Part shown: one piece after another, positions 48,238 through 64,000 of the stretch | Layout: every line of letters begins with the position of its first letter | How positions within the stretch are numbered: the stretch's first letter is position 1 | DNA from: Clostridia bacterium | GTDB taxonomy: Bacteria; Bacillota; Clostridia; Oscillospirales; CAG-382 | NCBI GenBank assembly: GCA_017516825.1 | Contig: JAFXBC010000025.1 | Span: 1,328-65,327 of the forward strand | Length of the DNA: 64,000 nt | Reading direction: 5' to 3' | The notes under the pieces: model-generated | What the model was told of the DNA's origin: nothing | Seen by the model: the letters and a program-made list of their open reading frames with translations, nothing else | Database searches by the model: none | Position numbers and translations under genes: made by a program

Positions 48238-49011
48238 TTACTTCGATTCCGTATGCTTGATCAGCTTCCGCACAAGGGCCAGGTCTTTCTTTGCGATCTC
48301 CGCAGTGTAGGGTGCTTTTTCTTCTTGGGTCAGGATGCGTTCTCCCACGAAATATTCCAGACATTCCGCCATGGCTTCGCCGAAAAGACGGATGTTTGCC
48401 CGCAGACGCACCGCCATAGCTTCCCCTGCGTAGAGATTTCCCCGCACGGTGTTGTATTCTTGACAGCAGTCGAAGGGAGGCAGAGCTTCTCCCAGCTCCC
48501 ATGCCTTGGGGTAGTCCTCCTTGGTGACGTAGCGGTACATTAGATCCCGGGTCACCTTGGTGCGCATGGCGGTGTCCGTGCTGATCTCCAAGATCTTGTG
48601 ATAAAGCAAAATGGCTTCCTCGTAGTTTTCGGGAGATTCCCTGAGGGTGCCGGATAAAGCCCACGCCAAGGCATACATCAGCTCTTCGTTCCCGGGATGG
48701 CGGATCAATGCTTCCCGCAGAAGGGGAATCGCCTCGCTGTGGCAGTCCTTGTCAAACAGCGCCGTTGCTTCTTGGCACACAGCTTGGATCTCCTCTTTCA
48801 GCTTACAGGTGTCGTGTCCCAGCAGATGATCCACGGACACCCCGAAAAGATCCGCAATTCCCGGCAACAGGGAAATATCGGGGCAGGAGAACCCTGTTTC
48901 CCATTTGCTCACCGCTTGGCAGGAAACGCCCAGAACTTCGGCAACCTGTTCTTGGGTAAGATTCAGCCTCTTGCGTAGTGTCTTGAAAGTTTCGGAAAAT
49001 AAATGACTCAT
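48238..49011 (-). CDS. XRE-HTH regulator with TPR-like C-terminal domain
   Basis: LTQEQVAEVLGVSCQAVSKWETGFSCPDISLLPGIADLFGVSVDHLL. Confidence 0.85.
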   Translation of the reverse strand: MSHLFSETFKTLRKRLNLTQEQVAEVLGVSCQAVSKWETGFSCPDISLLPGIADLFGVSVDHLLGHDTCKLKEEIQAVCQEATALFDKDCHSEAIPLLREALIRHPGNEELMYALAWALSGTLRESPENYEEAILLYHKILEISTDTAMRTKVTRDLMYRYVTKEDYPKAWELGEALPPFDCCQEYNTVRGNLYAGEAMAVRLRANIRLFGEAMAECLEYFVGERILTQEEKAPYTAEIAKKDLALVRKLIKHTESK

Positions 49012-49732: not shown

Positions 49733-50866
49733 TCACAACAGCTTTTTCTTGATGTTCTTCAAAGTCTTTTCAAGGGTCTTGCCTTCGTACTCCTCGTAGA
49801 GGTTGAAATTGCTGAAGGTGCCGCCCTCGTCGTTAGCCCAGCCGATCAGCCAACGGCCCTTGAGCTCGTCGCCCAGGTTATCGCTTTGGGAGGTGTAGCG
49901 GAAGACGTAGTAGTCCTCTCCCTTCTTATCCACCACGCCCAGGAATTCGATCTCATCCGGCACTCTCCCCAGCTCTGTGGGATAGGTCAACCAATGTACC
50001 AGATCGCTCTTGGCCAGATATTCCTTGTCGGCATACTTTGCGGGGAAAAGGGAGGTCAAACCGTATTTTCTCAAAAGACCGTAGGTCATATGGGCGTATT
50101 TCAAGTCCTCGGCCAGGGCTTCCACGGCCTCCGTGGGAATGGGTTGCTTGGCGGTCAACAGAGTTGCCACGGCAAAATGGGAAATATTGTTCTTGCCAAG
50201 CTTCAGAACCTCGTACAGCAGGGGAATGGTGGATTCCTCCATGAAGTACTGCACCGCATCGCAGAGAAGCTCCAGAACGCTGACGATCACGTCGTCAAGG
50301 GGCGTCTCCAGATACCGCTTCAGCTCGGAATTGAGGTGGCGGGCGAACAAGGCCTTGGAGTCTGCGGGCAGGTTCCCGATCTCCTTGGTGTAATGCAAAA
50401 GGCCTTGGTACACCATGCCCTTGTGGTATTCGTCCTTCAAGGCGTTTACCGCGGAGATCAGCTGTGCAACGGCAATCTTGTCGTTGTGTCCCTCCTTGAA
50501 AATGTTGTCAATAGCGTTTTCCACAAACCGCTCTTTGTTCACCAGCTCCATCAGCGTCTGGATATCCTGCAGGTGGTCTGCACCGATCTCCATGGGGGAA
50601 CCGTGGCAAAGCATAATGAGCCCCAGCAGATTGTCCTCGTATGCAAAGATCTCATCCTTTTTGCGGTAGCTTTCTACGGTGGGGATCAGATCGATCAACG
50701 CCTTGACCTCCCCAAAGGCAAAGCCCGCCAGCTCCTTTTTATCAACTGCGGTGATCTTCACCTTCTTTTGCTGAAAGGCGTGGAGAATGTATCTCAAAAT
50801 GTTGTTTTTTTCTTCATAGCTTGAAAGTCTTTGAACCTCTTCAAGAATGGGAGTAAACGTTGCCAT
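49733..50866 (-). CDS. Hypothetical helical-repeat protein
   Basis: AAAGGAGG RBS plus ATG 50866. No recognisable catalytic motif. Confidence 0.65.
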   Translation of the reverse strand: MATFTPILEEVQRLSSYEEKNNILRYILHAFQQKKVKITAVDKKELAGFAFGEVKALIDLIPTVESYRKKDEIFAYEDNLLGLIMLCHGSPMEIGADHLQDIQTLMELVNKERFVENAIDNIFKEGHNDKIAVAQLISAVNALKDEYHKGMVYQGLLHYTKEIGNLPADSKALFARHLNSELKRYLETPLDDVIVSVLELLCDAVQYFMEESTIPLLYEVLKLGKNNISHFAVATLLTAKQPIPTEAVEALAEDLKYAHMTYGLLRKYGLTSLFPAKYADKEYLAKSDLVHWLTYPTELGRVPDEIEFLGVVDKKGEDYYVFRYTSQSDNLGDELKGRWLIGWANDEGGTFSNFNLYEEYEGKTLEKTLKNIKKKLL

Positions 50867-51106
50867 GGAAGCCTCCTTTGGGGGTGTGGGATAGATTGCC
50901 TTCAGTATACCATACGATCCTCGGAAAGTCAATGCACAGACCGACATCGGCATAACAAGTGCCGAAAAAACGCAGAAACGCGAAGCTCCTTCTATCGGTT
51001 TGGTTGAGCTTATCTCAAACGAATAGAAATTTCGGTTATTGCTTTTCCCGGGCGGTTTGCTATAATAAAGGCGTAGCTACAAAAAATCAAGAAAGGAATA
51101 ACCTAT

Positions 51107-52183
51107 ATGATGAATCTTGCAGATAAACTAAAAGAACTTCGTAAAGCAAAAAAGATATCCCAAGAAAAGCTTGCCGACTATCTCGGCGTATCCTATCAGG
51201 CGGTGAGCAAATGGGAGAACGGTATTACTTGTCCCGATGTTATGTTGCTACCGGAGATCGCCCGCTATTACGGCATCACCGTGGATGAACTGTTACAGGT
51301 GGAACAGATCGACGCCGACAAATACTTTGAAGAAGTTTGTTCAAATGCCGAAAAACTCTTCCGGGATGGAAAGCGGGCGGAGATCATTCCTCTGTGGCGT
51401 GAAGCGCACAAGAAGCTTCCCAACGATATTCGCGTCAAGGAAATGCTGATGTCAACCTATTTTGATACGGACAGAGTGAAGTATCAAAACGAGATCATCG
51501 AGCTTGGAACGGAAATTTACAATGCCGATCCCTCCGAAGGCGGGAACAGCTATTACCAAGGACAGGCGATCCTCCAGATCGCAAGTACCTACTCTGCTAA
51601 CGGCAATTCGGAAAAGGCAGACGCATGGGCGCGCCGCGCACATCAGATCAATCATTGTCAGGAAATGCTGTTTATGATGATCCACGATGAGGAGGATTGG
51701 CTTACCGAAACCTTCAGCTTTGCCAACCATTGGTACCTGAATACGCTGTTCTATATGGCGGCGCGGCTGAATATGTGTAACGTAAAATGCTTCGGGGAGG
51801 ATTACGTTCAAAAAGTCAGCATGGCCGTAGCAAATATGTTCGAGACGGCGTATCCCAACGACGACATGAGCTATGAATCGTTGGAACAGCTTTGTATTTT
51901 GCACCGCCTTGTTGCCGAGGAGGAAGTATCTCTTGGAAAAGAGGAAGTGGTTATCAGAAAGCATCTTTCCCGTGCAGTGGAATGTGCCGTTAGGTCATCG
52001 ACCGTAAAAGCGCATACGCTCACGCATCCGTTGTTGTACGGTTGGCAGGTCGCAGACGCTCCTTCCGATCACAAGCAGCTTGTGCGAACCTTGAAGGCCG
52101 AATTGGCGTGGAACTGCTTCGACGAGTACCGAAACAAAGATTGGTTTTTGGATCTGGTTGCCCGGCTTGAAAACGTTGAGTGA
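51107..52183 (+). CDS. XRE-HTH regulator with TPR-like C-terminal domain
   Basis: ISQEKLADYLGVSYQAVSKWENGITCPDVMLLPEIARYYGITVDELL. Paralogue of 48238..49011 and 5776..6261. Confidence 0.85.
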   Translation: MMNLADKLKELRKAKKISQEKLADYLGVSYQAVSKWENGITCPDVMLLPEIARYYGITVDELLQVEQIDADKYFEEVCSNAEKLFRDGKRAEIIPLWREAHKKLPNDIRVKEMLMSTYFDTDRVKYQNEIIELGTEIYNADPSEGGNSYYQGQAILQIASTYSANGNSEKADAWARRAHQINHCQEMLFMMIHDEEDWLTETFSFANHWYLNTLFYMAARLNMCNVKCFGEDYVQKVSMAVANMFETAYPNDDMSYESLEQLCILHRLVAEEEVSLGKEEVVIRKHLSRAVECAVRSSTVKAHTLTHPLLYGWQVADAPSDHKQLVRTLKAELAWNCFDEYRNKDWFLDLVARLENVE

Positions 52184-52277
52184 TCAAGCCGGCATACGCC
52201 ACCTCGACGCCGTGACAAAGGCATACACCGACGCCGCGATGAGTAAGGCGTTAGGGTAAAAGCATAATCGCAAAAGC

Positions 52278-52305
52278 AAAGCCCGAAGCACACGCTTCGG
52301 GCTTT
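52278..52305. terminator. Bidirectional terminator at the left edge of the AT-rich island
   Basis: AAAGCCCGAAGC-ACAC-GCTTCGGGCTTT. Confidence 0.8.
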
Positions 52306-52309
52306 ATCC

Positions 52310-53083
52310 TTATTCAAATGAAATATCTGCTACAATAATTGCATGATCACTTCCTGCTGCGACGGCTTCGTCGTAGTTGTATGTTAGTGATTCTACTCTA
52401 CAATTATTTTTCACGAAAAGAAAGTCGTATCGAACAGCACCCTTCCTGCGAATGTTATGTGACTTAGTTAATGGCTTTCCTTCTTCGTATCCTTCGATGC
52501 CATTGAAACGCACATAAGCATCTGTGAGGCCAATGTCAACCATTTCGTCAAAGAAATGCTTTGCACCAGGACCGTTATCAAAGAATTGCATTTGCGTCAT
52601 ATCATAATGATCGACTTGCGGTTCGTTAGCATCTATTCCAATAATATCGGGACGATATTCATCAATAAATTCTGCAAAAGAATCATACTGCACCGATTTC
52701 GAACGATAATATCCGCAACCAGTCAATGAATGCAGCGCTAATATCTTTATAGTTTTATCGTTCTTCTTCAAGGTTACATATACAGTCCTATCAGGAAAAG
52801 GACTGCGTTCAATGACTCCGGCTTCCAGTATTTCGAAATTCTTGCTCACCATTACCAAGACTCCCAACCTTCGAGCGTCTGAGTCAAATTTGCTCGGCTT
52901 ACGATACTCCAGCGAATAAAACAATTCATACTTATTGGAAAGCGTGGCTTTAATGTATTCGTATGCGTGCGGTTTTACTTCCTGCAAAATAACGCAAGTA
53001 TCATCTTCGATTTGAGTCTGCAAGTACTTTATTTTGCGCTCGGTGTCTCCTGCATAACTTATATTCCAGTCAATTATTTTCAA
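52310..53083 (-). CDS. Endonuclease/exonuclease/phosphatase (EEP, DNase I-like fold) family protein
   Basis: AAAGGAG RBS plus TTG start. KIIDWN, VILQEV, IIGIDANE and C-terminal GSDHAII match the EEP motif order. Confidence 0.75.
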   Translation of the reverse strand: MKIIDWNISYAGDTERKIKYLQTQIEDDTCVILQEVKPHAYEYIKATLSNKYELFYSLEYRKPSKFDSDARRLGVLVMVSKNFEILEAGVIERSPFPDRTVYVTLKKNDKTIKILALHSLTGCGYYRSKSVQYDSFAEFIDEYRPDIIGIDANEPQVDHYDMTQMQFFDNGPGAKHFFDEMVDIGLTDAYVRFNGIEGYEEGKPLTKSHNIRRKGAVRYDFLFVKNNCRVESLTYNYDEAVAAGSDHAIIVADISFE

Positions 53084-53832
53084 AGCTTTAACTCCTTTAC
53101 AGCTTGCTTTATTCGTTGATTTCGCTTTTCAACGAAGTCCAGTTCTTTTTCAATCCATGATAAATATTCTTCTACGGTCTTGGGCAATGGATTATACTCA
53201 AATGCGCCACTTCCTAACCAAAAGTTAACGTGGTTATAGTCATCGGTAACGCAATCTTGCAAAAAGAAGAAATCAACATATCCTTTGAAATCTACAAACA
53301 AATCGAAAAAGTTTTTGTTCTGTAAAAGTGTATTGTATAAAGGGCTCTCTTCGTTTTGATAAAATTTTCGGATACACTCTAAGGTTAAATCCCAGCGGTC
53401 TTTAATGAATGGATTACAACCGCGAGATTGATTTATGCCACCTTGCTTTTTTGGAAATATAATTTCACCGCCAATGGTATATGATTTGTGTATATAATTT
53501 TCCATGTAGGCGTGATAGTCAGGCAAAGCGTTTGCCACCTGTTCTATCATTCCGCGATAACGACTATATCTGAAACTGGCAACGATAGAATCGCTTCCAA
53601 AACGAAAGTCTTTCCAAGTCAGATAATTCGCGCCACTACCGATTTGCAAATCCATCGTTTCACCGTTGGGCAAGGGTCTGCTATATAGCAATTTGTGATA
53701 TAACTGCATTGTTTTGCTTGCACTATCAGGATCGCAGTTGAAGCAACCCAATAGTGAGTCTTTATCCCAATAATTATTCCAGTATCTTGGTGTATCGGTA
53801 GTGAAATCGAATTCGACATCAATAGAGTTCAC
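53080..53832 (-). CDS. Conserved-looking hypothetical protein (250 aa), first gene of the pair with the EEP nuclease
   Basis: GTG start with AGAAGG RBS. Its stop codon overlaps the EEP start (TTGA). Motif-rich (YTIGGEIIFP, RGCNPFIKDRWDLTLECIRKFY, FKGYVDFFFLQD) but the domain is not recognised. Confidence 0.65.
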   Translation of the reverse strand: MNSIDVEFDFTTDTPRYWNNYWDKDSLLGCFNCDPDSASKTMQLYHKLLYSRPLPNGETMDLQIGSGANYLTWKDFRFGSDSIVASFRYSRYRGMIEQVANALPDYHAYMENYIHKSYTIGGEIIFPKKQGGINQSRGCNPFIKDRWDLTLECIRKFYQNEESPLYNTLLQNKNFFDLFVDFKGYVDFFFLQDCVTDDYNHVNFWLGSGAFEYNPLPKTVEEYLSWIEKELDFVEKRNQRIKQAVKELKL

Positions 53833-54116
53833 GTTTCTTTACCTTCTTTTAATGATTAATCGCAGTAATTATATCAGAAAACATATAGTTAAAGTTATAT
53901 AATTTTTCTTATTTCCAATTCGAACTCTCTCGTAGTTACGGACAAGATGATACCTGCTCAGTTTATTTGCGTACCTACCCGTATCTATCCGTCCCTAAAA
54001 ATAGGGTGTTTTTGAACAGCCTTGCATAGCCTTGCAGAAAATTGATAGGCAACCGAAAGACTGTAAAAGGCGTTTATCTCGAAAGTGGGGAATGAGCACC
54101 AAAAATCAAGCAATTA

Positions 54117-54195
54117 GTGACCGCTTTCTTGCCCCTTCCGAGAAAAATGCACGGCTAATGCAGGGCCGAAGGGACGGGCGGTCACTTTTGTTTGC
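54117..54195 (+). other. Orphan GC-rich long hairpin + U-tract (terminator-like or small-RNA 3' end)
   Basis: GTGACCGC (54117-54124) pairs with GCGGTCAC (54178-54185), with inner CCCTTC/GAAGGG pairing, followed by TTTTGTTTG. No + strand gene lies upstream. Confidence 0.4.
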
Positions 54196-54260
54196 CGCAT
54201 AACTACTATGAATTATAGCATATTTTTCTTCAGATTACAAGTCGACAGCCCGTGAAGCTA

Positions 54261-54289
54261 TTGAAAAATTCGAAAATATGTGATATAAT
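54261..54289 (+). promoter_or_regulatory. Consensus SigA promoter of the HNH gene
   Basis: TTGAAA (54261-54266), 17-nt spacer, TGaTATAAT (54281-54289). Confidence 0.7.
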
Positions 54290-54482
54290 ATGAACAGGCA
54301 AATCTTATCCCTTTTGTATCAGCAAAAGATGATCGGCAAATCCTTAGTCAAGCTGTTATAAGGATTACCCTTTGAGGTTTCAGCAATAGGTTGCCCTATG
54401 TGTCGTTCAGAGCATTTGCCAAAACGATAAGGAGGTTAATGCAAGTATACTTCTGTTTCACTTACGAAAGGAAGTATGACAC

Positions 54483-55424
54483 ATGAAACAATCTATGGAC
54501 TTGAACAAAGAAACCGCAAGCCGACTCTGGGTAAAGCAGTTCGGCAAGAAACAAAAGGCGGTTGACTTTTCCGGACGTACCATTGCTCGAGCTGCCTACA
54601 ATGACAGAAACAGCGAATACGGCTGGAACGTTGACCACATCCTGCCTGAATCAAGAGGCGGGAAAACCGCAGATCATAATTTGATCTGTTGTCACATTCT
54701 GACCAACGATGAGAAGGCAGACAAATTCCCCTGCTTCAAAGCAAATGGGAAGGAATTTGAAATTCAAAACAGGCAAAACCATTATGAGATCATTGCAAGA
54801 TCTGCCGAAAAGGACGATCCGCAAGAAGAGGCGATAAACTTCTTGGATGCTGCGCAAGGCTTGGAATGCTGGAAGCAATGCCGAGTCGACGGAAAGGATG
54901 TTTTTGTTGGATATGTTAAGATCAAGGTTGAAACAGAAAACGAATCCGACCAACTCCTTGAACGCTATCGCAATTTTCTATCTGAGCTGTTTGATACGGA
55001 TTTGATCTTTGTTGAACAACAGCTATCCGGTTTTTATCCGCTTTTCGGCTATGCGAAACGCACGTTTGTGTATACCGTAATAATTGACAGTATACCAACC
55101 AAAGAAGACACGCAGAATCTCCTTGATAATTGCGTGATCTTGAATACGTATAGCCTTTATTTTACCAACAAAACAGGATTTGATAATATTCAAATCGTTT
55201 GCGGTATGGAGCAATACGATAGCCGTTTTGATGCAACCCTTAAATGCAAAAACAGCATTTTAGAAAAACGGGTTTATTTCAGCGAAGATTTAGCAATTGA
55301 TGAGCTTGTGAAGATCAATACAAGTGCTGAAAAAGAACTCAAGGACACTTATCCGCAAAACGGTTTTTATTGCTATGATCGCGTTTATACACAATTGGAA
55401 AAAGATCTCGAAAAACGAATCTGA
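54483..55424 (+). CDS. HNH endonuclease fused to ~230-aa unknown C-terminal domain
   Basis: HNH core YGWNVDHILPESRGGKTADHNLICCHILTNDEKADKFP (nt 54621-54731). AAAGGAAG RBS. Confidence 0.8.
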   Translation: MKQSMDLNKETASRLWVKQFGKKQKAVDFSGRTIARAAYNDRNSEYGWNVDHILPESRGGKTADHNLICCHILTNDEKADKFPCFKANGKEFEIQNRQNHYEIIARSAEKDDPQEEAINFLDAAQGLECWKQCRVDGKDVFVGYVKIKVETENESDQLLERYRNFLSELFDTDLIFVEQQLSGFYPLFGYAKRTFVYTVIIDSIPTKEDTQNLLDNCVILNTYSLYFTNKTGFDNIQIVCGMEQYDSRFDATLKCKNSILEKRVYFSEDLAIDELVKINTSAEKELKDTYPQNGFYCYDRVYTQLEKDLEKRI

Positions 55425-55455
55425 GCTTTAGAAGAAGCATATTTGTAAACCTCTG

Positions 55456-55495
55456 AAAGAGATGTCGGGCAACAGGCATCTCTTTTTTGTTTTAT
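55456..55495 (+). terminator. Rho-independent terminator
   Basis: AAAGAGATG / CATCTCTTT stem followed by TTTGTTTTATTT. Confidence 0.8.
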
Positions 55496-55568
55496 TTCCG
55501 ATTCTCTCTGGACTTTGCGTTTCTTTGTGATATCCTTTGTGCTGACAAAACGGAAAGGAGTCGCAACA

Positions 55569-55835
55569 ATGACAACCGAAGAAAAGATAAAAGGGCTGGA
55601 GCACCTACTCCGCAAATGCCCCGACGTGATCACCGCGCTCCAAGCGTCAAGACTGATCCACGTGAGCAAGAACAGCATCCACGCGGCAATCAACGAAGGC
55701 AAGCTCATCGCATATGCCTACCGAGGCAAGCGGCTGATCAGCAAAGCCGACTTCATCGATTACCTCGCCGCCACCACCGACGACGAAACCGCATGGCAAA
55801 GGCGGCAGCGGGAGAGGATGAGCCATGACGAATAA
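55569..55835 (+). CDS. Excisionase/MerR-type HTH DNA-binding protein
   Basis: ITALQASRLIHVSKNSIHAAINEGKLIAYAYRGKRLISKADFIDYL. GGAAAGGAG RBS. Confidence 0.75.
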   Translation: MTTEEKIKGLEHLLRKCPDVITALQASRLIHVSKNSIHAAINEGKLIAYAYRGKRLISKADFIDYLAATTDDETAWQRRQRERMSHDE

Positions 55836-56373
55836 AACAAAGAAAAGCGAAAAGTTCTCCGCCGAAGAGATCTGCAAGATCTTACATATCAGCAAGCGAA
55901 AATGCGCCTGGATGCTCCAAAACGGAATGATCCCCTGCAAGGACTCCGGCAAGAAAACCCGCCGTTACACCGTCCTGCGAAAAGACCTCGACGCATACAT
56001 AAAAGACAGCACCGAGCACCCCGAGAAGTATTTTATCCCCGTCACCTTTACCTCAAATAACCCCGGTAAACGGGAGCCCGATAAATACTACCTCTACCCG
56101 CATCAGGTCCCCGAAGACTTCCGCCCCTGGCTTGACGATCAGTGGTACGACCTGCCCGACGTAATCACCCCAAAGGACGTGGAAACCATCCTCGGTTACG
56201 AGCACGAGTCTGTCCGCCGTTGGATCAACCGCGGCTGGCTTCAAATCACCAAAGCCCATAACTTTGAAATTGTCCCACGCGAATGGCTCATCGACTTCAC
56301 CTGCGACTATGCCTTCCAAATCATCAAGAAAAGCGAGAAGCATAGAAAACTGCTGTATAAGTATTTCAATTAA
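55825..56373 (+). CDS. Protein with two excisionase-type HTH modules
   Basis: SAEEICKILHISKRKCAWMLQNGMIPC..YTVLRKDLDAYI and ITPKDVETILGYEHESVRRWINRGWL. Overlaps the upstream gene by 11 nt. Confidence 0.7.
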   Translation: MTNKTKKSEKFSAEEICKILHISKRKCAWMLQNGMIPCKDSGKKTRRYTVLRKDLDAYIKDSTEHPEKYFIPVTFTSNNPGKREPDKYYLYPHQVPEDFRPWLDDQWYDLPDVITPKDVETILGYEHESVRRWINRGWLQITKAHNFEIVPREWLIDFTCDYAFQIIKKSEKHRKLLYKYFN

Positions 56374-56501
56374 TGAACACCACGCCTTCGAGAGTCCCGC
56401 TCCCGAAGATTTTTCTTCAGTTTATATCATTACAAATTCGTGAATACGCCCGATTTCTGCAAATTTTTTATGAAATATTGTAAATTAGGCGACTGCCGTA
56501 A

Positions 56502-56530
56502 TTGACAAATCACCTATCATAGTATATAAT
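56502..56530 (+). promoter_or_regulatory. Perfect-consensus SigA promoter of the island operon
   Basis: TTGACA (56502-56507), 17-nt spacer, TATAAT (56525-56530). Confidence 0.75.
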
Positions 56531-56555
56531 AATATATGACTACAAATGATAGGTG
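56511..56555 (+). promoter_or_regulatory. 10-bp perfect inverted repeat bracketing the -10 box (candidate operator)
   Basis: CACCTATCAT (56511-56520, inside the promoter spacer) and ATGATAGGTG (56546-56555, overlapping the RBS) are separated by 25 nt. Confidence 0.5.
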
Positions 56556-56562
56556 GTATATC

Positions 56563-57408
56563 ATGAAAGAACTGATCAAAGCTATACGCTCTGCGGCGAA
56601 TATGAATCAGGAACAGTTTGCAAGTGCCCTCGGCACGACTCCGCTTTCCATTAACCGCTGGGAAAACGGCAAAACTCTGCCCAACCGTATGGCACAGACT
56701 CAATTATATAATTTTTGCAAGGAGCGTGCAATCGATGTTGTGCAGCTCATTATAGATACCAAAGCATACGAGAATACTGATGATAAGCTTGTCCTCTACC
56801 ACGGCTCAAAGAAAGGCATAAACGGAGACATCGCTCCTATCAGCCGTAACGAATGTGACTTCGGCAAGGGATTTTATATGGGTACAACGACGCTCCAGCC
56901 ATTGACCTTGGTGTGCAACGAGGATAAGCCCAAGCTCTATACCGTCGAGCTTGATATGACCGGATTGAAGGTATTGACCGTTGAGATCGGTATGGATTGG
57001 GCTATGCTGATTGCTTACTACCGCAAGGAGATGGAGAGTGCCAAAGGTACGCCAATTTATGAAAAGTACGCGCACATGGCAGACGGTTATGATGTGATCA
57101 TCGGCTACATCGCCAATGACCGTATGTATACCGAGCTGTCCCGCTTCTTTAACAGAACACTCACCGATGTAGCTCTGATTAACTGTCTCTCCGCACTTGA
57201 CCTCGGCAAGCAGTATGTTGCTGTCAGCGAAAAGGCGTGCATGCAAATCAAAGTAATAAAAGAAGATTCTCTGTCTCAACTTGAGCTTGCGTTGCTCAAG
57301 GATATGAGCGCCGAACGAAGAAAAGAAGGAATCGCTTTGGCTGAGGAAATTGAAGTGAAATACCGTCGAGAAGGCAAATTCTTCGACGAGATATTGAAGG
57401 GTGAATGA
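56563..57408 (+). CDS. XRE-HTH fused to DUF3990-like domain
   Basis: HTH is MNQEQFASALGTTPLSINRWENG. The C-terminal domain has LVLYHGSKKG, CDFGKGFYMG, YDVIIGYIANDRM and LDLGKQYV, the motif order I recall for DUF3990. Confidence 0.8.
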   Translation: MKELIKAIRSAANMNQEQFASALGTTPLSINRWENGKTLPNRMAQTQLYNFCKERAIDVVQLIIDTKAYENTDDKLVLYHGSKKGINGDIAPISRNECDFGKGFYMGTTTLQPLTLVCNEDKPKLYTVELDMTGLKVLTVEIGMDWAMLIAYYRKEMESAKGTPIYEKYAHMADGYDVIIGYIANDRMYTELSRFFNRTLTDVALINCLSALDLGKQYVAVSEKACMQIKVIKEDSLSQLELALLKDMSAERRKEGIALAEEIEVKYRREGKFFDEILKGE

Positions 57409-57409
57409 T

Positions 57410-57832
57410 ATGTGTAAATCATTACAACTCACGCTCTGTGATACACAAGGGCAGCTTTTCGAGCTTGCCGCAGAGCGAGGATATAGCAGCGAAGCCTTTA
57501 TCAAGGCGTTTATGACCTCGCAGGTTGCCGCCGATATGGATAAAGATTTTCACCACGTTCAATGGGCAGGCAAGGCGTACATCCTATCCAGGATGGAGGA
57601 TGAACTTGCAGATCAGCTTACCAAGGATGGTGAGATCTACGATAAGGAAACGCTCTATTGGGCGGGCTACCTTTACCGCTATTGGAACTTCTACACCGGT
57701 GAAAACAGTCGAGAGATTTATAAACAAGCTTCCGCAAAGACAATGAACATCGTCTATCTCATGTACCACACAATGAGCCCCGAAATGGCGATCGATAGGC
57801 TGAAGGAAGCGTACAACGAAACAAAAGAATGA
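57410..57832 (+). CDS. Small helical partner protein (DUF3791-like?)
   Basis: ATG 57410 with GAAGGGTG RBS (the ORF is open from GTG 57401 and overlaps the upstream stop codon). The C-terminal YLMYHTMSPEMAIDRL resembles the recalled DUF3791 pattern only weakly. Confidence 0.6.
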   Translation: MCKSLQLTLCDTQGQLFELAAERGYSSEAFIKAFMTSQVAADMDKDFHHVQWAGKAYILSRMEDELADQLTKDGEIYDKETLYWAGYLYRYWNFYTGENSREIYKQASAKTMNIVYLMYHTMSPEMAIDRLKEAYNETKE

Positions 57833-57841
57833 GGAATAAAA

Positions 57842-58630
57842 ATGAAAAGTGCTGAAAACTTTGATAAAAAAACTTCGAAGCGAAAGATAATAAGAAAATG
57901 GTTGGCAGATCATTTTATCTTTGTGTGGATAGTTAGTAGTGCAATATTTGCATTTATTATACACTGGCTCTTTTCCACCCCTGCTCCTAACGATTGGATT
58001 GCTGCGAAATGGGGAGCAGGAGATATTCTTACTTTTGTAAGCACGGTTGCGCTTGGATTGTTGGCTGTATGGCAAAATAAGAGATTTGAAGAAGAAAATG
58101 ACGAATCGCAACTCCGAATGGAGAAACTAACAAAAGACGCTAACGAAATATCGATTGTTCAAAAGATTGTCGAGCATGAAAGCAATAAATTACTTAGGTT
58201 AAGAACAAAAATGCAGATGTTTATTGATGCTTGCAACACTCAAGAAACAGTTGATGATGTGTCTGATGTTGCACAACAGCCACCTGATTTTATGAAAATA
58301 TACATAAAAATCAAAATGGATAGTAGGGACAAACAAATAAGATTGGCGACCGTTGAACTTTTATCTGAATTGAAAACGTATCCAAACAATGATTCAACTC
58401 GTGAATTGATATCTCTTATCTCAGATTATTGTAATTCTTCAACAGAAGTTGCAAAATGTATAAGGGAGTGTTCAGATGCTACTCAAGCGTACACGATAAA
58501 AGCGGCTAAGGAAAAAGAATTTATTCAAAAGAGTTCAAACTTTATTGCCGAGCGCGAAGTTTTACTTGACAAAACGATATATGGCAACTTATCACTTGAC
58601 GAAATACGAGGATTGTATTGTCAAGAATAA
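57842..58630 (+). CDS. Two-TM membrane protein with coiled-coil cytoplasmic domain
   Basis: TM helices FIFVWIVSSAIFAFIIHWLF and ILTFVSTVALGLLAVW, followed by a charged helical region. GAGGAA RBS. Very AT-rich. Confidence 0.65.
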   Translation: MKSAENFDKKTSKRKIIRKWLADHFIFVWIVSSAIFAFIIHWLFSTPAPNDWIAAKWGAGDILTFVSTVALGLLAVWQNKRFEEENDESQLRMEKLTKDANEISIVQKIVEHESNKLLRLRTKMQMFIDACNTQETVDDVSDVAQQPPDFMKIYIKIKMDSRDKQIRLATVELLSELKTYPNNDSTRELISLISDYCNSSTEVAKCIRECSDATQAYTIKAAKEKEFIQKSSNFIAEREVLLDKTIYGNLSLDEIRGLYCQE

Positions 58631-58648
58631 TAATAGCAGGATAAGCAA

Positions 58649-59626
58649 ATGGAAAAGAACAAAATTGACATAAAAGAAAACTATATTTATCGCTTGGATA
58701 ACGAGCTTCTGACCATCTTTCTGCGAGATAGATCGTCAGGCAAGAACATTATTTGGGCAACCGATAACTATAGTTCGCGTGGCTGTGGATATCAAAGTTA
58801 CGATTATATAACCGTCGAAGCCATAACAGGCTATCACGGAAATATCATAAAGCCGAGAACGGAAAAATCCAAAAAGGAGCAGACAGACCGTATACGTGAT
58901 AAAGCGGAGGTGTTCACCCCTTCTTGGATCTGCAACAAACAGAACAATCTCGTAGATAATGCATGGTTCGGTACGGACTTCGTCTTCAACGAGGAAACCG
59001 AAAAGACTTGGATTGCAACCACCGAGCCGATTGCCTTTCCAACCGTAACAGGCAAGACATGGCAAGATTACATTAACGATGTTCGCTTGGAGATTACCTG
59101 CGGCGAAGCTCCGTACCTTGTCAGCCGTTACGATACCGTCAGCGGATATATGATAGAGCTTTCACAACGCATTGGATTGCTTGACAGAAAGCTCCGTGTT
59201 GTAAGCGAGAACACACAGACAGAAAAAGAATGGCTGAAATGGGCAATCAAGTCCTTTCAGAATACCTATGGCTACGATTGGCAGGGCGATAATGTGCTTC
59301 TGGCACGAGAAAATCTGCTCTTCACCTTCATCGATTACTACAAGGCAAAGTTTGATAAAGAACCCGATATCGATATTCTCAAGAAGATTGCCGAAATCCT
59401 CTCTTGGAACATATGGCAGATGGACGGCTTGAAATTCGTAATTCCCGAAAGCTGTAAAGCAGTCGAAGAAGTTCAGTTGTCCCTGTTTGACGACGAGCTT
59501 GAAAAGCAGCCTTGTCCCGGATGTGCCAAGAACGACCCCTACGCTCATACTGGTGTTTACTGCATTATAAAAGACTGGAAAGAGAACAAAAAGATAAAGT
59601 TTGTATCGTTGTTAAAGGAGAAATAA
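58649..59626 (+). CDS. Methyltransferase-fold-like protein lacking the (D/N)PPY motif
   Basis: DKAEVFTPSWICNKQNN (motif X-like) and LEITCGEAPYLVSRYD (motif I-like). No NPPY/DPPY/DPPH anywhere in the protein. Confidence 0.65.
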   Translation: MEKNKIDIKENYIYRLDNELLTIFLRDRSSGKNIIWATDNYSSRGCGYQSYDYITVEAITGYHGNIIKPRTEKSKKEQTDRIRDKAEVFTPSWICNKQNNLVDNAWFGTDFVFNEETEKTWIATTEPIAFPTVTGKTWQDYINDVRLEITCGEAPYLVSRYDTVSGYMIELSQRIGLLDRKLRVVSENTQTEKEWLKWAIKSFQNTYGYDWQGDNVLLARENLLFTFIDYYKAKFDKEPDIDILKKIAEILSWNIWQMDGLKFVIPESCKAVEEVQLSLFDDELEKQPCPGCAKNDPYAHTGVYCIIKDWKENKKIKFVSLLKEK

Positions 59627-59628
59627 TT

Positions 59629-60606
59629 ATGGCAAATAATTTCAATATAGATGATACAATCATTGCAAAAGTGATTTTGGGTAGAATTGAACCGAAGATC
59701 TATGCTTTTGAAACTGAGACTATTCCTAGCTACCTCAAGGTAGGAGATACTTTTCGTTCGGTTGACGAACGTTTGAGCGAATGGAAGAAAGCGGGTTTTA
59801 GTGATTTAAAACACGTTGGAGATTGGTCATCTGAAATAGCGGGAAAAGATATTTATTTTAGAGATTATGCTGTCCATAGTTATCTTGAAGAAAATGGTAA
59901 AACGAGATTAACAAGGGATGTTTATCCGGGCAAACCGTATTCCAAAGAGTTTTTTAAGAATGCGTCTAAAGAAGATGTAGAAAAAGCTATTGCAGATATC
60001 GTTGATTCAAGCGAGAAAGATTATACAAGGTACATATATTATGCAATTGGCAATCGAACTACAGTCGAAACAGAATATAAAAGAGATAGTTTTGACTGGG
60101 AGCCTCGTAGACCTCTTCAAACAGATACTATCGATAGATTTCAACAAGCCCAAGCGAACGGTAGAAATAATTTGCTAATGTATGCGGTGATGCGTTTCGG
60201 TAAATCTTTCACCTCTTTGTGTTGTGCTAAAGCGATGAACGCAAGTTTTGTTTTAGTGGTGTCGGGTAAAGCGGATGTTGCCGATGAGTGGCAGCGAAAT
60301 GTTCAAAAGCCGGGGCAGTTTGAAAGCTTTGTGTTTTTGAATTCTAAAAAATTAAAAAGAAACGATAAAGCTATTACTGATGCACAAGCCGACGGAAAAT
60401 GTATCGTCTTATTCCTCACTTTACAGGATTTATCCAAAGAGAAAAAACGCTTTTCCGAACTGTTTTCGTCCAAAATCGATTTAATGATTATTGACGAAAC
60501 TCATTTTGGTGCAAGAGCTGAAACACTCGGAAAAGTAATTTCTGATGCTCATTACAAAGAAGATGCTGCATTAAAACAGATTGAAAAAAGCAGATGGAAT
60601 CAATAG
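59629..60606 (+). CDS. GIY-YIG/T5orf172-like domain + SF2 helicase motifs I-II (N-terminal part of a split gene)
   Basis: AAAGGAG RBS. KIYAFETE..YLKVGDTFRSVDERLSEW...HSYLE...SKEFF (GIY-YIG superfamily pattern). Walker A MRFGKSFT (nt 60199-60207). DExH IIDETH (60493-60504). Confidence 0.75.
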   Translation: MANNFNIDDTIIAKVILGRIEPKIYAFETETIPSYLKVGDTFRSVDERLSEWKKAGFSDLKHVGDWSSEIAGKDIYFRDYAVHSYLEENGKTRLTRDVYPGKPYSKEFFKNASKEDVEKAIADIVDSSEKDYTRYIYYAIGNRTTVETEYKRDSFDWEPRRPLQTDTIDRFQQAQANGRNNLLMYAVMRFGKSFTSLCCAKAMNASFVLVVSGKADVADEWQRNVQKPGQFESFVFLNSKKLKRNDKAITDAQADGKCIVLFLTLQDLSKEKKRFSELFSSKIDLMIIDETHFGARAETLGKVISDAHYKEDAALKQIEKSRWNQ

Positions 60607-63600
60607 CGAAGCATTGGGCAGCCTGCAACCTGATAGAGCCGAAAAGGAACTCGTAAAAGAAACAAAAGGATTAGATGTAAAAGTAAAACTTCATTTATCA
60701 GGCACGCCTTATCGTATATTGTTAGGTAGTGAGTTTGAAAAAGAAGATGTAATATCTTTTTGCCAATATTCTGACATAATTAGCGAAAAAGAAAAATGGT
60801 ATAAAGAAAATATCGCTGGAGGAAGACAGGAAGAAACCGGTAAAGAAGAATGGGATAACCCTTATTATGGCTTCCCGCAAATGGTTCGATTTGCGTTTAA
60901 TTTGAACGAGTCTTCCATGAGCAAGATAAAGGAATTGGCAGAGCAAGGATATTCATATCATTTGTCTGCGCTTTTTGCTCCTCAGTCGATTGAAAAAGAT
61001 GACGAAGGCAAATATCAAAAGTTTGAATATGAAAACGAAGTATTAGAATTTCTTCAAAGTATCGAGGGAACTAAAAACGACAAAAACGTTTTAGCGTTCC
61101 TTGACAATCAGCGTATTAAAGAAGGAAAACTTTGCCGCCATATGCTAATGGTTATGCCTTATTGTGCCGCTTGTGACGCAATGGAGAAATTGATTAGTGA
61201 CAATAAAGGACTTTTGAAAAATCTGTCGGAATACGAAATAATAAATATTTCCGGTCTTAATTCTCAATATACGAAGATTCAAGAAGTAAAATCCAAGATT
61301 GCCTCCTGCGAATCAGAAGACAAAAAGACGATAACTTTAACCGTGAATCGTATGCTTACAGGTTGCACTGTACCTCAGTGGGATACGATGATTTTCTTGA
61401 AAGATACAGCATCACCGCAGGATTATGACCAAGCACTTTTCAGACTTCAAAGCCAATATGTGGTTGAATACGAAGGCAAAGAAATTGTTGATGGTCAAGA
61501 GGTTAAGAAGGTTATCAAAAAAGATATGAAGCCTCAAACACTCCTGGTGGACTTCAATCCGCAAAGAATGTTTTACCTACAAGAAACCAAATCAAGAATT
61601 AATAATATCAATACGGCTGATGGCGGTAATGACGAAAGCGAGAAACGAATCAAGCGAGACCTTGAAGTTTCACCCATTATTCATATATCAGAGAATAAAT
61701 TGGTCGAAGTCACACCTACCGATATACTGAAAGCAGTTAGTGAATATTCAACCAATCGTGGCATTACCGAAGCCGCAAATGATATTATTGTCGATGAAAA
61801 CCTAATAAATTTCGAGAACGTAAAAAAGGTAATTGATAAGGAATTTGAAATAGGTTCAGGTAAAGGGTTTGCAGAACAAGCTTATTCAGGTGATGAAACC
61901 GATCTGGGCGATGACGATATCCACACTGGCGGAGAGACTGATGAAACTCCCGATGAAGATCATGAAGCAAAACAAGACGATAACACCGGCACTGGAGAAA
62001 CGCAAGAAAAAGAAACCGATATAAAAGTCTTTGTCAAAAAATGCCGTTCATATTATCGTAGAATTCTCTTTTATGCTTTTCTTAGCAAAGGCGAGAAAGA
62101 GATTAAGAACCTAAATGCGGTAATTGAGAGCCTAAGTGATGCTGAGAACGAGAGAATTTTCAACAATCTTGGTATGAATAAAGATTTTGTTGAATTTCTC
62201 AAGAACAATATGTCCGGTGCTGCGTTGCGTTCTTTGGATAACAAAATCTATGATTTATATCGTTTGTCTCATGAATACGAAAATAGCGACGACGATCCCA
62301 TTAAACGCGCAACAACAGCTATCCAGAGGTTTGGTAAAATCAGTGATTCCGAAGTGGTAACTCCGCAAAGAATTGCAAAAGAAATGGTCGATTTGATACC
62401 CGAAGAAGATTTCAAAAAAGTCTTTGAAAATGGCAATAAGTTCTTGGATATTGCCTCTAAAATGGGTGAATTTGCTGTGGCTATTTATAGACGTGCGGAA
62501 TCTTTGGGCATACCTAAGGAATCAATAAAAAACAGTATTTATTCAATTCCTACTTCAAGTATAGCGTACGAATTCACCAGATTTGTATATGAAAAATTAG
62601 ACTTAAACGAAGAAAATTTAGCAAAATATTTTAATACTTATGATTTGCTCTCTTTAGGTGATGGTAAAGTTGAGTATGAATATATTTCTAAATTTATCAA
62701 ACAAAACAAGCCGTTTAATAGAATAAAACAAGATGATGAAATTACAGAAGGAGATGAGATAGTGAATTTTGATGTAGTATTAGGTAATCCTCCGTATCAC
62801 GAAATAATTAGCAACAATACAGCTAATAAATCATTGGGAAAAGAATTGTTCCCTGGATTTATGATGTTATCTAATGTGGTTTCAGGCAGATACACTTCAC
62901 TTATAACCCCCTCAAAATGGTTTACGGGCGACGGACAAGACCATTCTTTTCCGCCTTTAAGAGAGCATTATAAAGAAAACTCTCATTTTAAGAAGTACTA
63001 TCACTTTGGAAACGGAGAGGAGATATTCCCTGATATAACTGTAGGAGCAGTTAGTTATTTCTTGTATGATGAGGAATATACGGGCGATGTAGAGTTTCAC
63101 AATTGTGGACGAACGCCCTCTGTTCGAAATCGTCCATTGTTCGAGGAAGGATTTGATGTAATTCTTTCTATGAATGAAATGGTTGACATCATAAAGAAAA
63201 TAACTGATGCACCGGATTTTGAATCTTTACAAACAATTACCTATGGACGAAATGCTTTTGGCGTTTTAGGAAAAGACATTGAAAAAGATCAATTCTCTTC
63301 AGAGGACTACTTCGAAGGCGCTGTTGAAATCAGATGCAAATATGAAAATTTACGCTATGTTTCACTTGATAAAATAATCAAGAATAAAGAATTGGTTAAT
63401 AAGTGGAAAGTGTTCACATCTAAAGGTAATGGTGCAGCCGGAACATTATCTGATGGAATCCCCGTTTCGATAATTGGAAAAGCATTTGTAGGCAAGCCCG
63501 GAAGTGGATGTTCCGACTCGTTGTTTCCCATAGGATCTTTTGATACGGAAGAAGAAGCCTTGAATCTGCAAAAGTATTTTGCGACCAAATTCCTTCGCTT

Positions 63601-63799
63601 TATGGTTGGAATTATGAAAGTATCGAGAAATATAACTCAGTTGGTTTATAAGTATGTTCCTATGCAGAATTTCACTAATGTTTCTGATATTGATTGGAGC
63701 AAGCCTGTTGCTGAATTGGACAAGCAGTTATATGCAAAATACGGACTATCACAAGAAGAAATCGCATTTATCGAATCTATGATTAAGCCGATGGAGTGA
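60581..63799 (+). CDS. SF2 helicase motifs III-VI + acidic linker + gamma-class N6-adenine DNA methyltransferase + TRD (C-terminal part of a split gene)
   Basis: LSGTPY (60698-60709), VNRMLTGCTVPQWDT and QALFRLQS. Acidic tract at 61886-62020. MTase motif X VVTPQRIAKEMV, motif I FLDIASKMGEF, motif IV VVLGNPPYHE (NPPY at 62786-62797). C-terminal LYAKYGLSQEEIAFIESMIKPM. Confidence 0.75.
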   Translation: MKKADGINSEALGSLQPDRAEKELVKETKGLDVKVKLHLSGTPYRILLGSEFEKEDVISFCQYSDIISEKEKWYKENIAGGRQEETGKEEWDNPYYGFPQMVRFAFNLNESSMSKIKELAEQGYSYHLSALFAPQSIEKDDEGKYQKFEYENEVLEFLQSIEGTKNDKNVLAFLDNQRIKEGKLCRHMLMVMPYCAACDAMEKLISDNKGLLKNLSEYEIINISGLNSQYTKIQEVKSKIASCESEDKKTITLTVNRMLTGCTVPQWDTMIFLKDTASPQDYDQALFRLQSQYVVEYEGKEIVDGQEVKKVIKKDMKPQTLLVDFNPQRMFYLQETKSRINNINTADGGNDESEKRIKRDLEVSPIIHISENKLVEVTPTDILKAVSEYSTNRGITEAANDIIVDENLINFENVKKVIDKEFEIGSGKGFAEQAYSGDETDLGDDDIHTGGETDETPDEDHEAKQDDNTGTGETQEKETDIKVFVKKCRSYYRRILFYAFLSKGEKEIKNLNAVIESLSDAENERIFNNLGMNKDFVEFLKNNMSGAALRSLDNKIYDLYRLSHEYENSDDDPIKRATTAIQRFGKISDSEVVTPQRIAKEMVDLIPEEDFKKVFENGNKFLDIASKMGEFAVAIYRRAESLGIPKESIKNSIYSIPTSSIAYEFTRFVYEKLDLNEENLAKYFNTYDLLSLGDGKVEYEYISKFIKQNKPFNRIKQDDEITEGDEIVNFDVVLGNPPYHEIISNNTANKSLGKELFPGFMMLSNVVSGRYTSLITPSKWFTGDGQDHSFPPLREHYKENSHFKKYYHFGNGEEIFPDITVGAVSYFLYDEEYTGDVEFHNCGRTPSVRNRPLFEEGFDVILSMNEMVDIIKKITDAPDFESLQTITYGRNAFGVLGKDIEKDQFSSEDYFEGAVEIRCKYENLRYVSLDKIIKNKELVNKWKVFTSKGNGAAGTLSDGIPVSIIGKAFVGKPGSGCSDSLFPIGSFDTEEEALNLQKYFATKFLRFMVGIMKVSRNITQLVYKYVPMQNFTNVSDIDWSKPVAELDKQLYAKYGLSQEEIAFIESMIKPME

Positions 63800-63811
63800 G
63801 TATGACAGATT

Positions 63812-64000
63812 ACTTAAAGATATACGAAAAATTCAAAGATGTCAAAGAGGCTAAGGATTACATCGACGATGTAATCCTCCTCCGACATTATTATGCAACA
63901 CAGCAGTATTCTCAAATGCAGGATCATATTCGCAAGCTAATGAATAAGTATCTTGTTGAAACTCTTGTTTGGAATACTGTGAATACATCTCAGCCAACAA
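63812..64000 (+). CDS. Hypothetical protein (3' end beyond window)
   Basis: GGAGTG RBS plus ATG 63812, 12 nt after the upstream stop codon. Open to the window end (MTDYLKIYEKFKDVKEAKDY...). Confidence 0.5.

Follow-up and report, generated by a model that had tools for sequence, protein, structure and literature searches.

Seven open reading frames (ORFs) on one strand make up a gene cluster at positions 56502–64000 of a 64,000-nucleotide (nt) stretch of DNA, here called the window, from a Clostridia bacterium (contig JAFXBC010000025.1 of assembly GCA_017516825.1). They encode a helix-turn-helix (HTH) protein fused to DUF3990 (g1), its partner (g2), a membrane protein (g3), one half of an N6-adenine methylase (g4), a restriction-modification enzyme split by a frameshift into two ORFs, and the start of a further protein (g7); their positions are collected in Table 1. 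A preliminary description had seen in them one candidate composite defence system, with a restriction-modification core and added modules in an operon-like cluster. Core, added modules and operon-like arrangement are indeed present; nevertheless, they do not add up to a new seven-gene system. The locus combines modules that are either catalogued or candidates, and it is probably best read as a mosaic operon of independently mobile modules within an acquired island of low G+C content.

Table 1. Features of the gene cluster (window coordinates; homologous loci are given L numbers in the text)
Feature	Position	Strand	Description
Promoter	56502–56530	+	sigma-70-type, TTGACA-17-TATAAT, 12/12 match; left border of the g1-g2 cassette
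Candidate operator	56511–56555		inverted repeat, CACCTATCAT (56511–56520) and ATGATAGGTG (56546–56555), flanking the −10 box
g1	56563–57408	+	XRE-type HTH (amino acids 3–51) fused to DUF3990 (amino acids 77–230)
g2	57401 (GTG) or 57410 (ATG)–57832	+	140–143 amino acids, partner of g1; PADLOC PDC-M42B, 3.1e-9
g3	57842–58630	+	262 amino acids; hydrophobic segments (two) near the N-terminus, followed by a helical tail
g4	58649–59626	+	325 amino acids; S-adenosylmethionine (AdoMet)-side, N-terminal half of a gamma-class N6-adenine methylase
Enzyme, 5′ ORF	59629–60606	+	T5orf172/GIY-YIG nuclease (IYAF 59698, YLKVGDT 59731) and first helicase lobe (GKS 60193–60213, DETH 60493–60504)
Frameshift site	60584–60589	+	run of six A; five A in the intact relatives L011, L002–L007 and P0001 (alignment)
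Enzyme, 3′ ORF	60581–63799	+	second helicase lobe, linker, methylase (EVVTP 62351, LDIASKMGEF 62444, GNPPY 62783–62797), variable target recognition domain (TRD, ~62800–63720)
g7	63802–64000	+	start of a protein of 111–130 amino acids, cut by the window end

Control region, gene packing and module borders

The perfect promoter named in the preliminary description can be read directly from the sequence (−35 box 56502–56507, spacer of 17 nt, −10 box 56525–56530) and is the sole 12/12 match within 54000–64000. The 10-bp inverted repeat beside it, which had been taken for an operator of the g1 HTH, is also perfect; when the 86 nt of this region were shuffled 20000 times, a perfect repeat of this length appeared 70 times. 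Throughout the g1 family the −35/−10 architecture is maintained, and the order is that of −35 box, half-site 1 within the spacer, −10 box, half-site 2, ribosome-binding site and ATG; when homologous promoters are compared, the same two half-site positions are occupied, by sequences that compensate one another or are wholly different. In place of the window's repeat, L094–L099 have CGCCTATCAT and ATGATAGGCG, relatives at about 50% identity have ATATAACAT(T) and (A)ATGTTATAT, L109 has CTTAACA and TGTTAAG, and L128 has GTATCTTT and AAAGATAC. This co-variation is comparative evidence that the HTH of g1 would bind the repeat around the −10 box and repress transcription from its own promoter.

The genes following the promoter are tightly packed and co-directional, with intergenic distances from g1 to g7 of −8 or +1, 9, 18, 2 and 2 nt; only the last one had been given differently, as 12 nt, which is wrong because g7 starts at the ATG at 63802. 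As had been proposed, no convincing terminator is found on the + strand within the unit, and both promoter-like matches (30, against 22.6 ± 5 in shuffled sequence) and terminator-like matches (9, against 9.0) inside it occur at chance level.

That these genes nonetheless do not form one system is indicated by how their relatives are catalogued, by where they occur and by where DNA homology ends; separate catalogue entries and a lack of shared synteny had been named in the preliminary description itself as results that would refute it. PADLOC files the parts under separate entries, namely PDC-M42A and PDC-M42B (g1 and g2), MTase_II PDLC03390 (g4) and REase_MTase_IIG PDLC03626 (enzyme). In the 80 closest metagenomic relatives of g1 (47–90% identity to g1), g2 lies directly 3′ of g1 wherever room exists, and g3, g4 and the enzyme are present in none. 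In 82 of 85 enzyme loci a g4 homologue, often overlapping the enzyme's start codon, lies directly upstream, the remainder being cut by contig ends; g1-g2 are missing from 81 of these loci (all but L001, L038, L046 and L061) and g3 from all 85. Homologues of g7, for which no family was found, are the first or second gene downstream of the enzyme in 12 of the 85 and share 84–92% DNA identity with the window in L038, L046 and L061.

The DNA homology breaks coincide with module borders. Homology to L094–L101 starts exactly at the −35 box (56502) and ends at about 57810, and homology to L093 spans 54232–57841 and ends at the ATG of g3, L093 having a different gene thereafter; the g1-g2 cassette is therefore 56502–57841. 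L093 has the same element as the window, its upstream genes being 95–99% identical, and it bears a different cargo at the same junction behind g2. Within the restriction genes, recombination breakpoints lie at the NPPY codons (62786–62797, to 62799) and at about 63720, just before the last 70–80 nt of the enzyme gene: L011 and L002 share 58662–62799 with the window, up to the NPPY codons, and differ from 62800 to about 63720, that is, in the TRD; L009 shares g4 and 62699–63807 and differs in the motor; and in L061, L038, L074 and L079 conservation is limited to g4, the final 70 nt of the enzyme's coding sequence and g7, around a different enzyme body. Between the conserved flanks of g4 and g7, both TRD-only and motor-only swaps thus occur. 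The modules also differ in G+C content (g1-g2 46.5%, g3 35%, g4 43%, enzyme 36.5%). On a larger scale (50500–64000), G+C content is 51–58% upstream, where amylase and peptidase M20 genes lie, and drops to 34–46% from about 52 kb to the window end, which places all of the defence cluster inside an acquired island of low G+C content.

One integrated system of seven genes, as in the preliminary description, with all products acting together and the whole combination under selection, would agree with the one strong promoter, the gaps of at most 18 nt and the lack of an internal terminator, and g1-g2 stand upstream of g4 and the enzyme again in the four loci named above. Against it stand the distribution of g3 and g1-g2 among the enzyme loci, the lack of the rest of the cluster in all 80 g1 relatives, the homology breakpoints at the module borders and the separate PADLOC entries; this reading is already largely refuted and is left with hardly any probability.

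An orphan among the modules is g3, treated here as a passenger membrane protein. It is the two-transmembrane protein of the preliminary description, with hydropathy maxima at amino acids 20–48 and 58–77; it belongs to a small family of 88 proteins and has no match in Pfam, NCBIfam or PADLOC. Its homologues elsewhere are found in SNF2/Res systems, where DUF4391 genes lie on one side and an N6_N4 methylase gene on the other (8001–8801 in L090–L092, and L174/L175), and also alone in a conjugative element, beside an RHS toxin or beside an integrase. The SNF2-helicase/Res-type systems with a nested g3 hold, in addition, an OLD-type ATPase, a RelB-PIN pair or a gene with a SieB domain. L086 (4522–9591) is the sole other locus with g3 directly upstream of g4; its g3-g4 block, 89% identical to 57854–59607, lies beside a different enzyme allele, and since the invariant W52 of that enzyme is replaced by a nonsense codon and the 5′ end of g3 is broken, it is a second decayed copy. 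A protein of 253 amino acids, likewise with two N-terminal hydrophobic segments, is encoded between the enzyme and the g7 homologue in L002–L007, L009, L046 and L064 (about 14140–14901 in L002), with conserved proteins of 275 and about 200 amino acids further downstream; the idea that g3 is this protein relocated was dropped, as no similarity between the two was found.

The g1-g2 cassette

The assignment of g1 to an HTH-DUF3990 module held in domain scans (Pfam DUF3990 2.4e-27, 95.9 bits against a cut-off of 32.2, and HTH_3 2.8e-8). In PADLOC, g1 matches PDC-M13B (2.9e-17) and PDC-M42A (2e-13), and with g2, which overlaps it by 8 nt and matches PDC-M42B, it makes up the adjacent gene pair by which PADLOC defines PDC-M42. 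No Pfam family was found for g2, sequence searches of the PDB with g1 and g2 gave nothing useful, and literature searches retrieved no paper on PDC-M42. DUF3990 is a member of the ADP-ribosyltransferase (ART) clan of Pfam (PMC7955679) and is known as the tip of Rhs toxins, with an immunity gene downstream (PMC4524185). Among 81 unique g1 homologues the motifs LYHGS, GxGFY and IANDRM are at least 95% conserved, and so are H80, Y105 and D186, which are the putative catalytic H-Y-acid set of the domain. Most likely, g1 and g2 are a toxin/immunity-like or abortive-infection pair.

What follows the cassette varies from locus to locus. In about half of the g1-g2 loci with room, a co-directional gene begins no more than about 170 nt past the g2 stop. 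In a first sample of ten such cargo genes, separated from the g2 stop by 20–63 nt, four encode Type I HsdM and one each a fusion of a UvrD helicase and a PD-(D/E)xK nuclease, an SNF2/DrmD-like helicase, PDC-M60A and GmrSD; two were unmatched. In a second sample of ten genes, three, lying among the first three genes downstream, encode methylases (Type III, C5 and Type II, one each) and seven have no convincing defence match, one of these matching a CARF model weakly and in part. In L093 the slot after g2 (3627–4804) is occupied by genes for a 278-amino-acid protein and for a product with D...EYK, reminiscent of PD-(D/E)xK nucleases. As the cargo genes in the window lack a promoter of their own, they would be read from the g1 promoter, with g1 doubling as controller.

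The PDC candidates are untested predictions whose definition rests on guilt-by-embedding, the host systems being BREX, DISARM and Type I restriction (bioRxiv 10.1101/2024.01.29.577857); because they were defined by such embedding, the association of the cassette with restriction systems is known in outline. New here for PDC-M42 are the cassette borders, the candidate operator and the position at the head of operons. Like PDC-M42, PDC-M13 and PDC-M10 as catalogued (Payne et al., bioRxiv 2024), g1 and g2 are adjacent, match M42A and M42B and stand beside restriction genes, but here they lie 5′ of these genes and supply the promoter, whereas the catalogued candidates are nested between them.

In its position the cassette also resembles the controller (C) proteins of restriction systems. 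A small stand-alone HTH protein (HTH_26 or HTH_3, 60–90 amino acids), of XRE type, is the commonest upstream neighbour of g4, directly preceding it in about 27 of the 85 enzyme loci, and the HTH of g1 clusters with the stand-alone HTH of L052; the HTH gene of the window likewise heads its operon, and the candidate operator overlaps its promoter. Unlike a C protein, the HTH in the window is fused to an ART-like domain and accompanied by a partner gene. With regard to Type II toxin-antitoxin systems, the adjacency of g1 and g2 and a co-varying operator are observed; an HTH on the putative toxin is atypical.

PrrC is a latent toxin within the Type I restriction system EcoprrI, and the Xre-RES systems pair an HTH protein with an NAD-utilising toxin of the ART clan. 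By analogy, the cassette could be likened to the former as a latent toxin genetically tied to a restriction system and to the latter as an HTH protein combined with an ART-like one, although neither PrrC nor RES is homologous to g1-g2, and here the HTH and the ART-like domain are on one chain. If the analogy with PrrC held, g1-g2 would be a guard or backup for restriction systems, its ART-like domain being kept silent by g2 or the restriction enzyme until a phage blocks restriction and thereby frees it, and its HTH timing the expression of the cargo. Such a role would fit the occurrence of the cassette ahead of many restriction or defence genes that are unrelated to one another, co-directional with them and at gaps of 20–60 nt, the conserved putative catalytic residues, the use of DUF3990 at the tip of Rhs toxins, where an immunity gene follows downstream (PMC4524185), and the definition of the PDC candidates by embedding in restriction and BREX systems, for which PrrC is the cited paradigm (bioRxiv 10.1101/2024.01.29.577857). 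In about 40% of the g1-g2 loci with room, however, the next gene downstream is convergent or far away, which means that the pair also occurs by itself; among the 20 cargo proteins sampled, 9 have no defence match; no interaction or trigger is known; and in the window the enzyme is frameshifted, yet g1-g2 are intact. The guard is an unlikely explanation.

The restriction enzyme and its half-methylase partner

The domains assigned to the enzyme in the preliminary description were all recovered, namely T5orf172 at the N-terminus (23.8 bits against a cut-off of 20), ResIII (7.9e-10) with GKS and DETH, Eco57I (6.3e-14) with GNPPY, and the TRD. The two ORFs align with positions 11–311 (1.3e-90) and 329–1359 (1.9e-239) of the 1359 positions of REase_MTase_IIG PDLC03626, and GKS, DETH and GNPPY are unchanged throughout an alignment of 19 relatives. 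More than 4600 protein clusters are related to the enzyme, the intact ones being 1345–1405 amino acids long; a scan of one genome per species found the family in 528 encoding stretches, from Clostridia, Bacilli, Negativicutes, Bacteroidota, Proteobacteria, Campylobacterota, Spirochaetota, Saccharibacteria and others. Sequence searches of the PDB with the enzyme gave nothing useful, and literature searches found no characterised enzyme that combines GIY-YIG nuclease, helicase and methylase.

The frameshift noted previously is real in the given sequence. As the enzyme is split by this extra base, which lies in the helicase region, restriction is probably off here, unless the additional base is a sequencing error. 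The frameshift could be taken as a sign that the cluster is a chance juxtaposition in a decaying defence hotspot, with a dead restriction pseudogene, an accidental shared transcript and no regulatory logic; L086, the only other g3-g4 locus, also has a broken enzyme gene and a broken g3, the closest relative L093 has a different cargo after g2, and the whole lies within a low-GC island. On the other hand, the frame of 1389 codons is intact but for one base, the 3′ ORF being 92% identical to the intact 1389-amino-acid protein P0001, and any inactivation must therefore be very recent or an artefact. The cargo, moreover, starts 9 nt past the g2 stop in the window and 14 nt past it in L093, with a ribosome-binding site, and the arrangement is therefore recurrent. 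A mere product of decay is accordingly given only a slight chance.

The second component is g4, described earlier as a methyltransferase-fold protein without NPPY, an assignment that can now be made more precise. It matches MTase_II PDLC03390 over its full length (3.3e-129), and NCBI sources label its relatives “restriction endonuclease subunit M”; Pfam has no family for g4, and a scan of 47 homologues at E ≤ 5 gave no consistent one. Its conserved segments are AEVFTP, LEITCGEAPY, SRYD, WNIWQMDGL and a Cys-rich insert. A plasmid-borne lactococcal “N-6 DNA methylase” of 230 amino acids scores above the Pfam threshold for N6_Mtase; hhalign aligns it with the g4 family at a probability of 98.4%, and since AEVFTP and LEITCGEAPY fall on its GEVFTP and canonical FLEPAAGDGNF, they are motifs X and I, respectively; SRYD and WNIWQMDGL are probably motifs II and III. 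Motif IV, (N/D)PP(Y/F), and the half of the fold that follows it are missing in g4 and in all 47 aligned homologues, and are present only in fused relatives of 650–711 amino acids. When 1.84 billion cluster representatives were searched, 2185 g4 relatives were found, and of the best 150 about 35 have a length of 590–1125 amino acids; in these longer proteins the g4-like 320 residues are continued without a break by the second Eco57I half (KFDFVIGNPPYQ), and the C-terminal region is homologous to the enzyme's own C-terminus, the TRD. A profile-profile comparison of g4 with the enzyme's own methylase matched the motif X segment alone.

Structure prediction is consistent with this. A first AlphaFold2 model of g4, built on a shallow alignment (76–95% identity), reached a mean predicted local distance difference test score (pLDDT) of 60.5, and its Foldseek matches were meaningless; a second model, from representatives of 50% clusters, has a pLDDT of 92.5. 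Foldseek found no significant PDB match for it, but its top weak matches, BrxX/PglX, LlaGI, LlaBIII, DrdV, BsaXI and MmeI, agree with the sequence evidence. Sequence searches of the PDB with g4 gave nothing useful. A reading of g4 as a PD-(D/E)xK nuclease (D162, D179-x-K181) was rejected, as the model shows a helix there and the residues align with the motif I–III region of methylases. Presumably, g4 is a subunit of the restriction enzyme.

The lactococcal half N6 methylase is encoded on the Lactococcus cremoris plasmid pUC047G (L182, 1952–7031), 2 nt upstream of a 1461-amino-acid protein with DUF4145, helicase and Eco57I domains that is 24% identical to the enzyme over 98% of the latter; dairy lactococcal and enterococcal plasmids bear a distant version of the two-gene layout of g4 and enzyme.

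A permuted architecture of the same restriction family (architecture B) is found in L173 (237–5608), L181 (640–6116) and L180 (658–4635). There, the first gene encodes a complete methylase of 669–711 amino acids, made up of a g4-type half, the NPPY half and a TRD, and the second a protein of about 1120 amino acids with T5orf172 and helicase, ending in a lone half-methylase of a second type (QIFTP...FIDLYMKSGLY) without NPPY. From these layouts it follows that both architectures consist of two different AdoMet-side halves and one catalytic-TRD module; they differ only in which gene bears that module. The window itself has the form in which the enzyme carries it (architecture A). In the lineage of the window the catalytic-TRD module also recombines as a unit. 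Such domain shuffling among relatives of Type ISP enzymes, GIY-YIG nucleases included, was anticipated by Szczelkun and colleagues in 2012 (PMC3553950).

The preliminary description had found no fit to canonical layouts. This is true insofar as the enzyme is not a Type ISP member; it does, however, have the Type ISP domain order and belongs to a catalogued, REBASE-derived PADLOC family. As in LlaGI and LlaBIII, one polypeptide, although its frame is interrupted here by one extra A, comprises in the same order a nuclease, a superfamily 2 helicase-like motor, an NPPY-bearing N6-adenine methylase of the gamma class and a TRD (PMC3553950), and TRDs are swapped between near-identical alleles as they are between LlaGI and LlaBIII. 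In contrast to these enzymes, the nuclease is T5orf172/MUG113 of the GIY-YIG superfamily rather than Mrr/PD-(D/E)xK, domain scans giving no Mrr match in the enzyme; there is an obligate extra subunit, g4 (82 of 85 loci), in place of a single gene; a permuted two-subunit form exists; and neither phmmer nor the family profile matched any PDB chain at E ≤ 1, those of LlaGI (5FFJ) and LlaBIII (4XQK) included. Differing in nuclease family, gene number and sequence homology, the enzyme is therefore Type ISP-like in its working but not a member.

The PADLOC labels, for all the strength of the full-length profile matches (REase_MTase_IIG PDLC03626; MTase_II PDLC03390 and PDLC03375), are likewise only partly apt: “Type IIG” misses the helicase motor, and the “methyltransferase” PDLC03390 is an AdoMet-side half without the catalytic NPPY. 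As a gamma-class N6-adenine methylase, g4 has motifs X and I and lacks motif IV and the half that follows. The permuted loci L173, L180 and L181 recall Type III systems (Mod plus Res), with a TRD-bearing methylase followed by a nuclease-helicase of about 1120 amino acids; there, however, the methylase is of the Eco57I gamma class instead of N6_N4, the nuclease is an N-terminal GIY-YIG domain, and the Res-like protein ends in a lone half-methylase.

A probable mosaic operon and what it may mean

Taken together, the mosaic is best pictured as three modules. In the first (56502–57841), the HTH of g1 would bind the repeat and repress its own transcription, and its DUF3990 domain would form with the constant partner g2 a toxin/immunity-like or abortive-infection pair, the candidate PDC-M42; the second would be g3, a passenger. 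The third, g4 and the enzyme, would be a widespread two-gene ATP-dependent restriction-modification system, Type ISP-like by domain order, in which recognition and hemimethylation of an asymmetric site would be the task of the TRD and the NPPY methylase, translocation that of the DExH motor and cutting that of the GIY-YIG/T5orf172 nuclease, with g4 acting as a half-methylase subunit that is translationally coupled to the enzyme in many loci.

Several points weigh against this picture. Co-transcription from 56502 is deduced from gene spacing and the absence of terminators, and cryptic promoters may exist within g2 or g3. The distributions refer to the best 80 loci per scan and the cargo annotation to 20 sampled loci. 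In PADLOC, g1 scores higher for PDC-M13B than for PDC-M42A, and the Foldseek matches of g4 to BrxX/PglX, LlaGI, LlaBIII, DrdV and MmeI are individually non-significant (E 0.2–4). Since the PDB search showed no sequence similarity of the enzyme to LlaGI or LlaBIII, a mechanism like that of Type ISP is argued from the order of the domains, by analogy; the roles given to DUF3990, g2, g3 and g4 are predicted ones; and the change from five to six A could be an assembly error.

The genes just outside the cluster may be mentioned in this context. The gene for a protein with an HNH domain (54483–55424) lies behind a separate 11/12 promoter, in which the −10 box is extended (54261–54289), and is followed by a terminator-like hairpin (55455–55486) and by two excisionase-like HTH_17 genes (55515–55835 and 55825–56373); this block (54232–56373) is 91% identical to L093 and therefore travels with the g1-g2 cassette. 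At the edge of the low-GC island, the − strand (52310–53832) encodes a DUF6994 protein (1.2e-76) and a weakly Exo_endo_phos-like protein, and two longer XRE-HTH proteins are encoded at 48238–49011 (− strand) and 51107–52183 (+ strand).

A more far-reaching idea combines two proposals, which jointly must be regarded as speculative and rather improbable. The cassette may be a portable driver and guard, by which any restriction or defence cargo that recombines into the site just past its stop is provided with an autoregulated promoter, with the ART-like domain as a backup killer or an NAD-linked sensor when the cargo is blocked. The enzyme family, in turn, may use two alternative AdoMet-side half-domains, the g4-type one and the one built into the enzyme alternating for one NPPY-TRD module, as the permuted architectures suggest; whether the system modifies or restricts could then depend on which of the two is paired with the catalytic half.

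As for the mosaic operon itself, the locus illustrates that a perfect promoter and near-zero gaps can join independently exchanged modules, which limits the trust to be placed in operon-like packing. Its wider interest lies in the portable, presumably autoregulated PDC-M42 cassette and in the half-methylase partner with its permuted architectures. The former heads many kinds of restriction operon, and its exact borders and co-varying operator make the regulator-operator pair easily testable. The latter belongs to a very widespread, uncharacterised family of ATP-dependent restriction systems with a GIY-YIG nuclease, a constant spare half-methylase and two permuted architectures; if it is true that the half-methylase is a working subunit, this would be a new way to build and control a DNA methylase and a new branch beside the Type ISP and Type III enzymes.

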